This document shows, one piece after another, positions 5,934-9,697 of a stretch of DNA of 21,276 bases. The stretch lies in UHGV virus genome UHGV-0185283; one strand, given 5' to 3'. The notes beneath the pieces were generated by a model. That model had not been told where the DNA came from, did no database searches, and saw only the letters and a list, made by a program, of their open reading frames with translations. Positions within the stretch are counted from its first letter, which is position 1, and the number at the start of each line of letters is the position of its first letter. Source of the stretch: a virus. A program made the translations under genes and the position numbers.

Positions 5934-6054
5934 TTCATTGCTCCAGACGAATGATATGATGCAACCATGATGTGATTGCATACCGAAATGGTACTATTGA
6001 GTATTTATCCAGTAGGTTACGATGCCATTCCACCCAACTGGTGAGGCATCAAGG

Positions 6055-6315
6055 ATGTACAGCAAATACGACGAGGCGCAGTTTCACTTGAGACTTCCGC
6101 ATGAACTCCACGCGAAAATTAAGCAGCGTGCGAAGATGAATAACAGGTCGCTGAACTCAGAGATAATTGCAGCGATTGAAGAATCATTGGCTAAACAAAG
6201 CTCTGCATCAGTTTACATTGACGATGCAGAGCGTATGGCAGAACAACAATCTGATATGGTTAAGAAAATTGTCTTTGATACGCTCAAAGAGCTATATAAA
6301 AAAGACAGCAGCTAA
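6055..6315 (+). CDS. mnt: Mnt-like ribbon-helix-helix (Arc/MetJ family) repressor
   Basis: C-terminal two-thirds aligns with remembered P22 Mnt (NNRSLNSEII..., AERMAEQQSDMVKKIVFDTLKELYKK versus AERLADEQSELVKKMVFDTLKDLYKK); the N-terminal beta-strand residues differ. Divergent from the tailspike; start chosen at MYSKYDE with GAGG upstream (ORF-track start 6022 is an alternative). Confidence 0.7.
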   Translation: MYSKYDEAQFHLRLPHELHAKIKQRAKMNNRSLNSEIIAAIEESLAKQSSASVYIDDAERMAEQQSDMVKKIVFDTLKELYKKDSS

Positions 6316-6335
6316 CCATCAGTTACGGAGGATTT

Positions 6336-6413
6336 ATGCAAAGAGATATGCTGAATATTGCGTTCTACATATTTGGTTTTTGCACGTTCCTGGTGTTTGC
6401 GAAGCTATTCTGA
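6336..6413 (+). CDS. Hypothetical 25-aa hydrophobic peptide downstream of mnt
   Basis: GGAGG 4 nt upstream of ATG; MQRDMLNIAFYIFGFCTFLVFAKLF has one predicted transmembrane helix; its 3' end overlaps the gp16-like gene on the opposite strand. Below the 60-aa ORF-track cutoff. Confidence 0.3.
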   Translation: MQRDMLNIAFYIFGFCTFLVFAKLF

Positions 6414-8402
6414 CAACGCATCAGACTTGGCACCCTGAGTCAGGGCGTTAATGGCCTTTTGCGCCTGCTGCATGGCTTTCTCAAACGCTGTTGATCCGCG
6501 TGGGGTGTTTGCCATTCGGAGCATTGCATTTCTGAATGGTTCGCTCTCATAGGCGCGAGTAAGAAGTCCGTAGCTTACTGCTGCGCCAGTTGTCGCCGGG
6601 TTCATTGCCGTCCCATACCCGATAATGAACGGGATGGTTTGCTGCCCTGTTGGTGTTGTTACTGCCGCTTTTGCTGCCTGCTGAGTGGACTGAAGGTAAT
6701 TTTTCAATCCTTTCAGATAAGCAGCGTCCTGCCCCTTAAATGTGATGCCAGTCTGGTTTTGCAGGATGTTAAGCTGCCGAAGGAACTGGTCAGGGGATCC
6801 GCCAGATTTCTCCATCGCCTTTCCAATGATGCCATTGCGCATTTGCACCCTGCCAACACGACCAACTGAGTTATACAGCGTCTTAATTTCCGATTTGTTC
6901 TTGCTGAATAGCATGTTGTTGACAACTTCCGGCGTCAGGTCGCCTTTCATGAGAACATTCTTCAGCCTGGTATTCTTTAGTTTCGCCGCTTCGTCAGCGT
7001 AGACGGCATTGGCCTGCTGATATTTACGGAGAGTATCGTTGCCAAGATTCTGACCAATGGCACCATTGATATCGTCGGTCATCGCCTTGTAAACGCGCTG
7101 AATGGCAGCATCGGAACGGTTTGGTAACACTGGTCGCTCACCCTTCACGTCCATTCTGAACTGACTGCGCAGGTCGCTTAATTGCTTCAAATCCAGATTT
7201 ACCGGACCATCAGGGCCAGCATTGCGAACAAGCTCATCACGATATGACTGAAGTTTTGAAATTGTCTCGTTATCAGCCACCTTACCAAGCTTCTGCAGGT
7301 TAGATATTTCTGTATCAATCTGCTGAATTGCTCGCGCAGGCTGAATGTTTACTCCAGCCATAGCATTCTGAACCTGCTCCAGTCGATTACCGGCGGCACG
7401 ACGAATTCCTGATGTTTTCGCTTTAAGGCTGTCAATAACAACCGCTGGATCATACTCCCCGAATTTATCAGCAAATCTCTGCACCAACTGGCTTCTCGCT
7501 TCCTGTTGCGTTGCTCTCATTCCGCTTGTTCCAGCCAGAGGGATATTTTCTGCTGTAGTCTGCGCCATTTTTCCGACGCGGGAAGTAGGTTGTAACAGGT
7601 CTGTGGTGTGCAGAGGCACTCCTTCACGCTCTGCAAATCTGATAGCCTGCTGCGCTTCTGGCGCAATAGCACCACGAACGCCACGATAAGCAGCACCTAA
7701 TCCACGTCCAGCAGCGTTAATAGCGCCGCCTGCCAGAACTCCAACACCTAAATCGGTAGCGAGTGCTTCCGCATCATCTTTCGCACTATTTGCAGCAAGT
7801 GATCCAACTGCGTTTTCTGCTAGAAGGCGAGTTGCCCCATGAGCAATTCGACCAGCAAGTGTTGGTGCCTGTACCGCCGCTCTCTCAACGCCAGCAGGAG
7901 TGAGGTAAGGCAATGCTTCAGCAAATACCCTTCCCTCTGTCGTTTGTGGAGTCAGCGCACCTTGCTGAAGGCCAAAGTCCTGCTCTAATCCCTGCGTTGT
8001 TACTCGTGGTGCTGGTTGATATGTACCATCGCCAATGCCGAGTTTACCGCCAGCCCAAGCCGCCGCGCTTGTTACAGCATCGGCAACTGATGCAGGTATG
8101 TTTGCCACGTTCACGCCAGCCTGCACCAGTCCGCGACCAGTTTCTTTCACGGCTTCACCAAGATCAGACATAAATCCACTTTGCTGTGGTTGTTGCTGTG
8201 CTACTGGTTGTTGTGTCTCCACTGGATGCACAGATGGCAATGGATAGGCAGCATAGAAAGCTTGCTTAGCCTGCTCTGCATTTTCTCCGGCTTTCGGGGC
8301 CACGACTTCATTGAAGTATTGCTCCTGAGCCTGCGCTTTTTGTTCTGGTGCTAACGCCTGATACTGTGGAGAGGCGATAACATCTTTCCATGCTTTAGCC
8401 AT
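6405..8402 (-). CDS. Ejection (E) protein, P22 gp16-like
   Basis: 665-aa Ala/Gly/Gln-rich protein in the last position of the gp7-gp20-gp16 block; start overlaps the upstream stop (ATGA). Confidence 0.65.
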   Translation of the reverse strand: MAKAWKDVIASPQYQALAPEQKAQAQEQYFNEVVAPKAGENAEQAKQAFYAAYPLPSVHPVETQQPVAQQQPQQSGFMSDLGEAVKETGRGLVQAGVNVANIPASVADAVTSAAAWAGGKLGIGDGTYQPAPRVTTQGLEQDFGLQQGALTPQTTEGRVFAEALPYLTPAGVERAAVQAPTLAGRIAHGATRLLAENAVGSLAANSAKDDAEALATDLGVGVLAGGAINAAGRGLGAAYRGVRGAIAPEAQQAIRFAEREGVPLHTTDLLQPTSRVGKMAQTTAENIPLAGTSGMRATQQEARSQLVQRFADKFGEYDPAVVIDSLKAKTSGIRRAAGNRLEQVQNAMAGVNIQPARAIQQIDTEISNLQKLGKVADNETISKLQSYRDELVRNAGPDGPVNLDLKQLSDLRSQFRMDVKGERPVLPNRSDAAIQRVYKAMTDDINGAIGQNLGNDTLRKYQQANAVYADEAAKLKNTRLKNVLMKGDLTPEVVNNMLFSKNKSEIKTLYNSVGRVGRVQMRNGIIGKAMEKSGGSPDQFLRQLNILQNQTGITFKGQDAAYLKGLKNYLQSTQQAAKAAVTTPTGQQTIPFIIGYGTAMNPATTGAAVSYGLLTRAYESEPFRNAMLRMANTPRGSTAFEKAMQQAQKAINALTQGAKSDALSE

Positions 8403-9697
8403 TAATCACCCCATAGTGAAGAAAAGTTACTGCCAGCAGGAGATTGTTGTCCTGGCGTATTCTGTACTGGATCCTGATAATCAAACTGTTTTTTAACAGT
8501 GCTCAACTTGCTTTCAAGCTGATTTCTAATCTTTCCGATAGAGTCACGAAAAGCCTTTTCACTCATTTTGGGGCTTAGGGCACCAACCGCATCGGATAAT
8601 TTTTTACCCTCAGCATCTGAAAGAGCGCCCATACCCTTCAGGGACTGCACCATAGGAAGGAATGTTTGAGCTTTAAAGGTGTCGAGCCTTGCTTCAAAGT
8701 TAGCCGCATCAGAGCCAGGAACTGTCGGAAACGCTGAGCGAATTCCTACTGCTTTTGAAAGGCCGGGGCTTTGCTCTATCTCGTTGAGAGAATCAAGCGC
8801 GGTGCTGAACGTATCAACTGCACCCTGAGCGGCGGCCTGCCTGTCAGCGCGGGCTATGTCAGCCTTTTGCCGAACATCTGCCTGTTTCTGTTTTAGCTCT
8901 TCAAGCTTTAACTGATTGCTTTCTCTGGCTATCTGTCTGTCCAGAGCCTTTTCTTGTAATTCTGCTCTTTGTATTTCTCGGGAAAGAGCAGCATTCTGTG
9001 CGCTGATGTTCTGTCCACGTATCTGGATGTCCTGACCTCGAGCTGTTAGTGCTTCTCCTGCCTGATTGCTGCGGATTGTCTCTGCCAGCCTGCCTCGGTC
9101 AATCTCACGACCAGCCATCTTGTCCTGAACATTGAAGTAGTCAATCGGACCAAGCGCAGCCATCCCAAGGTGATCAACAAACTCACCAAATCCTGAAGGA
9201 TTCTGCTGATACATCTGAGCAACGCTGTTAGGGTCAACACCGACGCGAGTCAGTTCCTTGGCGTTGTTTTGCAGCCATGATTGCATTGCTTCTGGAGACG
9301 ATGATGCAAGGCGGGCGCCAGCCGCTAAGGTGCCGATAGAATTGCGCTGGTCTTCATCAATGAACCCCATGCCTTTACGAACGGATTCAATCTGGTCTGG
9401 ATATTCAGTAGCTAACTGACGCAAAGCACCGCGATCACCAGACGCATAAGCATTAGCGTATGCCTGCTGAAATTCTTTCTGCCGCTGAGCCTGCTTTTCC
9501 TGCTGAAACACCCCCGCAATACCTGAAAGGCCTTGCAAAGCAGTCAGCCCAACATTGTTAGCGCCTGAACGCTCAATATCATTGTTCTGCCTGATAAGCT
9601 GAAGCGTATTGCCGATGTCATTTACGTTCGGAGCGTTTGAGTTGACACCACCGATACCAGCCAACAATCCGCCATTTGTTCCTTGCCAAGTAGCCAT
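8402..9697 (-). CDS. Ejection (E) protein, P22 gp20-like
   Basis: 431-aa protein between the gp7-like and gp16-like genes; Gln/Ala-rich coiled-coil-like composition; translationally coupled to neighbours. Confidence 0.65.
   Translation of the reverse strand: MATWQGTNGGLLAGIGGVNSNAPNVNDIGNTLQLIRQNNDIERSGANNVGLTALQGLSGIAGVFQQEKQAQRQKEFQQAYANAYASGDRGALRQLATEYPDQIESVRKGMGFIDEDQRNSIGTLAAGARLASSSPEAMQSWLQNNAKELTRVGVDPNSVAQMYQQNPSGFGEFVDHLGMAALGPIDYFNVQDKMAGREIDRGRLAETIRSNQAGEALTARGQDIQIRGQNISAQNAALSREIQRAELQEKALDRQIARESNQLKLEELKQKQADVRQKADIARADRQAAAQGAVDTFSTALDSLNEIEQSPGLSKAVGIRSAFPTVPGSDAANFEARLDTFKAQTFLPMVQSLKGMGALSDAEGKKLSDAVGALSPKMSEKAFRDSIGKIRNQLESKLSTVKKQFDYQDPVQNTPGQQSPAGSNFSSLWGD

Follow-up and report, generated by a model that had tools for sequence, protein, structure and literature searches.

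Does the short open reading frame (sORF) that lies between the repressor gene mnt and the gp16-type DNA-ejection gene of a P22-like prophage encode a protein, and, if so, what might this protein do for the lysogen? The window analyzed here is the whole 21,276-nucleotide stretch of UHGV virus genome UHGV-0185283. A sequence-only reading of this DNA had drawn attention to a 25-aa hydrophobic peptide in the position where P22 carries the superinfection-exclusion gene sieA, and had suggested either a minimal membrane exclusion factor or a small toxin-like peptide. In this study, the sORF was traced through related phages and prophages, its substitution pattern was analyzed, and its position was compared with that of STnc6030, a transcript of the Salmonella prophage BTP1 published as an antisense RNA of 786 nt that brings about superinfection exclusion (Owen et al. 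2020, PMC7067206).

Genomic setting of the sORF

The sORF occupies positions 6336..6413 on the plus strand and comprises 25 codons plus a stop (ATG at 6336, TGA at 6411-6413), encoding a predicted single-pass membrane peptide, MQRDMLNIAFYIFGFCTFLVFAKLF. Its Shine-Dalgarno (SD) sequence, GGAGG, is located at 6327..6331 (+), is separated from the ATG by a 4-nt spacer (ATTT), and is unpaired in the predicted MFE fold, confirming the strong ribosome-binding signal reported earlier. Residues 5-21 form a 17-aa hydrophobic stretch with a mean Kyte-Doolittle value of 2.06 and a summed Hessa dG of approximately -0.3. This stretch is predicted to be compatible with one membrane helix, in agreement with the single transmembrane helix of the sequence-only reading.

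The cistron 5' of the sORF is mnt (6055..6315, +), encoding an Arc/Mnt-family repressor (Pfam Arc, 7.5e-15; Repressor_Mnt, 3.4e-14) that RefSeq names 'Arc family DNA-binding protein'. The earlier statement that the sORF follows mnt on the lysogen-expressed strand holds, as Mnt was identified by Pfam and its stop codon lies 20 nt before the sORF ATG. Because of this short gap and the lack of any terminator between the two genes in a terminator scan, the sORF is probably co-transcribed with mnt and expressed in the lysogen from the mnt transcript. A promoter consensus scan gave nothing convincing for the sORF in either the window or BTP1; manual inspection showed that a TATAAT box is kept in tailspike-adjacent contexts, with no usable -35 element. 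Just 5' of the mnt start, at about 6035..6047 (+), lies a palindrome, CACC-N5-GGTG, which may be what remains of an Mnt/Arc-type operator. The window lacks arc and ant of the P22 immI region, and the mnt gene has therefore lost its known target promoter.

Downstream, the sORF converges with a gene of the Sf6 gp13 / P22 gp16 type (6405..8402, -; 665 aa), annotated as a DNA transfer protein or P22-gp16 family ejection protein. The two genes overlap by 9 nt, corresponding to the last two codons and the stop codon of each, an arrangement absent from the earlier description. The P22-like prophage late operon also includes a gp20-type gene (8402..9697, -) and a tailspike gene with a P22 head-binding N-terminus (3624..about 5936, -). 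The tailspike frame is open to 5981, with a conserved start, MSDITANVV, at about 5936; its product combines the P22 gp9 head-binding N-terminus with a C-terminal tail resembling an intramolecular chaperone or autoproteolytic domain (...IGVIAQDV...). Near the end of the late region, and unrelated to the sORF, the segment 685..885 (-) matches Rfam IS009 with 190 bits (gathering threshold, 117).

The sORF is annotated in none of the records checked (Sf6, IME10, BTP1, P6, phiKp_30, VSe13 and RefSeq E. coli), so the expectation that standard annotation would miss it proved correct. An exact look-up of eight sORF peptide variants among 15 billion proteins found none of them, and three variants had no match in Pfam, PHROGs, NCBIfam or PADLOC. 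Literature searches found no translation data on the sORF.

Distribution and length classes

Related DNA was collected from three sources: BLAST searches of phage and E. coli sequence collections; a scan of IMG/VR with an exact pattern placed in the 3' end of gene 16; and scans guided by the gp16 C-terminal protein sequence, covering a one-genome-per-species set of bacteria as well as IMG/VR. Among the roughly 216 Sf6/L-type gp16 loci examined, all had an intact sORF frame. Each of the pattern matches (125 of 125) has an ATG and 25 codons with no internal stop or indel. A loose peptide pattern matched at 215 of the 220 loci, to which locus L167 adds a variant ending in S that was recognized by eye. 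The four remaining loci lack the sORF and comprise P22, Sf101 and Pectobacterium, all with other gp16 types, together with one truncated contig.

The peptides fall into two length classes, and the change between 25 and 23 codons, which is in-frame, is the sole length change across genera. The 25-aa class pairs with Sf6-type gp16 and is found in Sf6, IME10, VSe13 and many E. coli prophages. The 23-aa class, with the consensus MERDLLNFAFLIFG[IL][VC]VG..LFA, pairs with L-type gp16 and occurs in BTP1, L, ST64T, ST104, g341c, SPN9CC and Klebsiella phiKp_30, as well as in prophages of Erwinia, Citrobacter, Kluyvera, Atlantibacter and Pseudescherichia. Among 5426 complete E. coli genomes, 316 (about 6%) contain a match to the sORF sequence. 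Peptide class and the gp16 escape segment described below show perfect class-level pairing, which is uninformative because both lie within 250 bp and are tightly linked physically.

The loci without the sORF illustrate how this region is assembled. In P22, gene 16 is of a different type and sieA abuts it. In Sf101 (L003 3073..3384), mnt is 98% identical to that of the window up to position 6323, after which a different 911-aa gene occupies the gp16 position; this switch after mnt, in a phage without the sORF, shows that mnt and the sORF/gene-16 unit meet at a mosaic joint. Pectobacterium sp. B1J-3 (L135) encodes a distant gp16 relative (47% identity) and has no recognizable sORF homologue. A longer convergent ORF at this locus ends about 20 nt before the gp16 stop, and its hydrophobic C-terminus (...KKILTALTIIAACMVGFSLKTIF) suggests that it may encode an analogous membrane-anchored product.

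Upstream contexts and SD conservation

At least four unrelated contexts precede the sORF, which is found after mnt, after a gene for a 161-aa lipoprotein, directly beside the tailspike gene, and in other arrangements. A purine-rich SD is present in each, most often as GGAGGATTT-ATG, a unit shared by the majority of loci of both length classes across genera, with other SD-like motifs in the remaining contexts. At least four contiguous SD bases are located 3-12 nt 5' of the ATG in 185 of 215 loci; together with the intact frame, this bears out the conservation of both the ORF and its ribosome-binding site, which had been named earlier as a check. Mosaic homology breakpoints fall at the sORF ATG (position 6335).

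Elsewhere among the prophages, the sieA slot holds other genes in addition to the sORF, which is therefore tied to the 3' end of gene 16 rather than serving as a slot filler. The earlier assignment to the P22 sieA slot accordingly stands with respect to position, as P22 sieA lies downstream of mnt and ends 22 nt from gene 16, but not with respect to the kind of module: the sORF always accompanies Sf6/L-type gene 16 and is not a replacement for sieA.

Two of these contexts have features of their own. The 161-aa lipoprotein gene (MKKSLLIIPLLLAGC..., phrog_6067; L004 2026..2511, +; L006 995..1480, +) is located 24 nt 5' of the sORF on the same strand, an arrangement shared by VSe13 and many E. 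coli prophages (about 40 loci). Its product has no Pfam or PADLOC match and is a candidate second lysogen-expressed envelope factor. Where the sORF is tailspike-adjacent, a 95-nt spacer is conserved across genera (L138 2406..2500 in BTP1; L130-L134; L137). It holds a hairpin (GCACAAG...CTTGCGC) and, 20-25 nt 5' of the SD, a GGTTATAAT box for which no usable -35 element was seen; the spacer may represent a secondary promoter or a late-mRNA signal.

Evidence for coding

By itself, the sORF is not beyond chance, since 79 ORFs of at least 20 aa occur within 5 kb. Its substitution pattern was therefore analyzed using pooled Nei-Gojobori pN/pS, after removal of the start codon and of those codons that overlap gene 16. 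The ratio was 0.30 for the 25-aa class (47 distinct cores) and 0.24, with a pS of 0.68, for the 23-aa class (43 distinct cores). Of the six possible frames, that of the sORF had the lowest value, the remaining five ranging from 0.36 to 3.1, and none of 300 column shuffles yielded a pN/pS as low in either class. Variant alleles were distributed over the three codon positions as 17/13/24 in the 25-aa class and 16/9/43 in the 23-aa class. The probability that no start-destroying or stop-creating variant would be observed was 0.03 and 0.002, respectively. Furthermore, indels are present just 5' of the sORF and never within the frame. These comparisons of homologous sequences argue strongly that the sORF is a protein-coding gene under purifying selection, a conclusion we hold with high confidence.

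The same region was analyzed for signs of a functional RNA. Folding compared with shuffled sequences revealed no structure signal on either strand (z of -0.19 and -0.07), Rfam returned no match in the sORF region, and a scan of the region for intrinsic terminators found none. On these three grounds, an RNA element on either strand was rejected as the main explanation.

Relationship to STnc6030 of BTP1

STnc6030 is highly expressed in the lysogen and measures about 786 nt by RNA-seq, with the largest Northern band at about 500 nt (PMC7067206). When cloned behind the constitutive promoter PLlacO-1, it confers full resistance to BTP1, though not to P22, and the phage yield from prophage induction is unchanged (PMC7067206). 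Escape phages arose at 4e-8, and the four different escape SNPs, located at D23580 nt 404041-404078, are all non-synonymous in STMMW_03891, which encodes gp16 (PMC7067206). The model of Owen et al. invokes an antisense 'seed', and ORFs of more than 60 aa alone were considered and excluded (PMC7067206); because of this length limit, STnc6030 was published as non-coding. As of 2025, it is still treated as a non-coding antisense RNA in the searchable literature, in which we found neither a later reinterpretation of STnc6030 nor small-protein data on D23580 or BTP1.

Coordinates were mapped using the supplementary gene table of PMC7067206 and the BTP1 record, a D23580 coordinate being equal to the BTP1 record coordinate plus 390239. 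STnc6030 (D23580 403942-404727) corresponds to 2095-2880 of our BTP1 locus (L138), and the published cloning primers map exactly to both ends. The BTP1 sORF homologue, MERDLLNFVFLIFGLVVGKLLFA, is located at 2501-2572 of this locus and is preceded by the SD GGAGGG, the two together spanning 2492-2572. As this interval falls within 2095-2880, the STnc6030 clone contains the sORF along with its SD. The fragment additionally carries about 320 nt antisense to gene 16. The escape-SNP window corresponds to BTP1 gp16 residues 583-595 (ILGIGTVTNPALV) and lies 170-210 nt past the sORF stop; the escape SNPs thus fall beyond the sORF and therefore alter the gp16 of the incoming phage, not the peptide. Counted from 2095, an RNA of 500 nt would extend about 23 nt past the sORF stop and not into the SNP region, whereas the 3' end of STnc6030 derived from RNA-seq does cover this region.

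STnc6030 and the sORF of the window belong to the same genomic element, alike in orientation and in the way the gp16 stop is overlapped. Both share the GGAGGNTTT-ATG unit, M-x-R-D-x-L-N and an IFG core, and 9 of the first 17 residues of the BTP1 peptide are identical to those of the window peptide. The two loci differ upstream: the STnc6030 transcript starts about 310 nt inside the BTP1 tailspike gene, whereas in the window mnt separates the sORF from the tailspike gene, and the region of the BTP1 transcript start (L138 about 2085-2095) shows no obvious conservation in the window. They also differ in class, BTP1 combining a 23-aa peptide with L-type gp16 and the window a 25-aa peptide with Sf6-type gp16.

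The gp16 escape segment and SieA

The counterpart of the BTP1 escape region in the window comprises gp16 residues 593-605 (IIGYGTAMNPATT), encoded at 6588..6626 (-). It is homologous to BTP1 gp16 583-595 and P22 gp16 540-552, in an alignment anchored on either side by TGQ and GYGL.R.YES.P. The P22 stretch contains P546, and P22 G532 aligns 7 residues before the escape segment. P546S was present in all eight P22 mutants that escaped SieA, with G532W as a later enhancer mutation (Leavitt et al. 2024, PMC10883804). This correspondence makes residues 593-605 a putative site of contact with the peptide. In vitro, gp16 does not need its C-terminal 134 residues to associate with membranes (Leavitt et al., PMC10883804), and an intramembrane contact with this segment is therefore uncertain.

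In the phage collection, 41 records carry a P22-type SieA (as defined by the type A SieA query only) and about 39 carry the sORF, with an overlap of 0; this mutual exclusivity is confounded by the tight linkage of the sORF to gp16 type. A tblastn search with P22 SieA gave no match in any sORF locus.

Proposed function and alternative explanations

We lean, by a modest measure, toward the view that the product of the sORF is a single-helix peptide, made in the lysogen, which stops the gp16-dependent DNA entry of phages with the cognate gp16. The peptide would sit in the inner membrane of the lysogen and interfere with the DNA-delivery conduit formed by incoming gp16, and possibly gp20, through the Gly-rich hydrophobic C-terminal segment of gp16, so that DNA delivery by superinfecting phages of the same gp16 type would fail. 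Induction of the resident prophage would be spared because it involves no injection step. The peptide would then be a miniature, non-homologous functional analogue of P22 SieA, and STnc6030 of BTP1 would be, at least in part, its mRNA. For translation, membrane location, co-transcription with mnt and the mechanism of exclusion alike, the sORF is a case in which we infer rather than observe. The exclusion phenotype itself was measured on the 786-nt fragment of the Salmonella phage BTP1, which carries the 23-aa class, whereas the window allele belongs to the 25-aa class. With this scope, the earlier idea of a minimal membrane exclusion factor gains plausibility from another phage, in that the BTP1 homologue lies inside the exclusion clone and the escape mutations fall in the gp16 segment implicated in SieA escape.

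The broader claim, that STnc6030 is the mRNA of a 23-aa membrane peptide and that a family of 23-25-aa peptides present in every P22-like phage with Sf6/L-type gp16 examined acts on the Gly-rich C-terminal segment of gp16, appears to us evenly balanced. An entry-stage block that spares induction, specificity for gp16 type, and single missense escapes within the same segment are what would be expected of a membrane protein acting on gp16, and the same three features do not sit easily with an antisense RNA whose complementarity extends over more than 300 nt. Because the fragment carries the long stretch antisense to gene 16, STnc6030 may still work through RNA or through a dual mechanism. As the peptide is encoded within 250 bp of the targeted gp16 segment, the blocker and its target type would be inherited as one unit.

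The evidence for coding would be equally strong if the sORF encoded a real small membrane protein with another role, such as a host membrane-protein regulator, a lysogenic-conversion factor, or a weak type I-like toxin checked by convergent late transcription, while STnc6030 acted purely as an antisense RNA on gene 16/tailspike mRNA. This alternative accords with the RNA-based model of Owen et al. (PMC7067206), with the location of the SNPs inside the roughly 320 nt of STnc6030 complementary to gene 16, and with a convergent overlap with a strongly transcribed late operon that resembles cis-antisense control. Against it, one mismatched base would be a poor means of escaping antisense control when the duplex exceeds 300 nt, and each of the four SNPs alters a gp16 residue within the segment containing the SieA-escape mutation P546S. 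An mRNA-destabilizing RNA should lower the phage yield, yet overexpression of STnc6030 leaves the induction yield unreduced, and the principal Northern band, at about 500 nt, would be too short to extend into the SNP region. Moreover, no toxicity was reported for constitutive expression, and no toxin or defense family was matched. We consider such another role possible but distinctly less probable than exclusion by the peptide. A type I toxin in particular was judged unlikely, given the lack of a family match, of a structured 5' leader and of a dedicated antitoxin sRNA, and the tolerated expression of the BTP1 fragment; the small toxin-like peptide suggested by the sequence-only reading is likewise disfavored, as lawns carrying this fragment under constitutive expression were normal and usable (PMC7067206), which speaks against strong toxicity.

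That the frame is untranslated, and that the 70 nt after gene 16 are kept as an RNA or DNA element, whether as part of STnc6030 or as a late-mRNA 3' or intercistronic signal, would fit a segment that always travels with the 3' end of gene 16 and lies within a documented abundant BTP1 transcript. Such an element would not account for codon-structured substitutions, in which pN/pS of 0.24-0.30 is confined to the sORF frame, third positions vary in excess and pS reaches 0.68, nor for a start, stop and length kept across genera with a lone in-frame change of two codons. SD motifs that have arisen or been retained in unrelated upstream contexts, indels that stop short of the frame, and the lack of a fold signal on either strand, an Rfam match or a terminator all point the same way, leaving this explanation improbable. 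The last explanation, a chance short ORF with a fortuitous GGAGG, draws on the sheer abundance of ORFs of this size noted above; it is refuted by the comparative data, namely the conservation of frame, SD and codon pattern across loci, and we regard it as very improbable indeed.

Should the exclusion peptide proposed here prove real, the well-studied model phages Sf6, L, ST64T and BTP1 would gain a widespread gene that annotation has missed, and the mechanism assigned to a phage 'antisense RNA' exclusion factor cited in textbooks would be corrected. The peptide would also explain why a prophage is unaffected by its own RNA once induced, a puzzle left by the original authors, and would provide a minimal tool of 23-25 residues for probing the gp16/gp20 passage of DNA across the inner membrane. 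If the peptide acts in this way, we know of no smaller injection-blocking exclusion protein. More generally, it would show that prophage defense functions can hide below the length limits of gene callers.

Comparison with known systems

Small hydrophobic type I toxins include Hok, Ldr, Ibs and TisB, and enterobacterial small membrane proteins include AcrZ and MgtS. The sORF product shares with these groups a length below 50 aa, a single hydrophobic helix, absence from annotation and nearby antisense transcription. It differs from them in having no match in Pfam, PHROGs, NCBIfam, PADLOC or Rfam and no structured leader.

The functionally closest system appears to be P22 SieA, with which place and strand logic are held in common and, by analogy, probably also the target segment. 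Both genes lie between gene 16 and the tailspike gene, converge with gene 16 and occupy the lysogen-expressed strand. P22 SieA acts by preventing DNA injection, and one of the mutations that overcome it, gp16 P546S, falls in the stretch aligned with the region of STnc6030 escape. However, P22 SieA has 164 aa, several membrane helices and an FxRYPxEAxxFNK motif, whereas the sORF peptide has 25 aa and one helix and lacks the motif; the two have no sequence relationship and differ about 6.5-fold in size. The peptide likewise falls outside SieA types A-C as a whole, which are about 160-200 aa long with several transmembrane helices and the same motif. Escape from SieA also needs changes in gp20, and the ranges differ: phages equipped with the ejection proteins of L, Sf6 and CUS-3 are subject to exclusion by SieA, whereas STnc6030 leaves P22 unaffected. 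We infer that the sORF represents an unannotated protein family within a known kind of system, the inner-membrane injection blockers of prophages.
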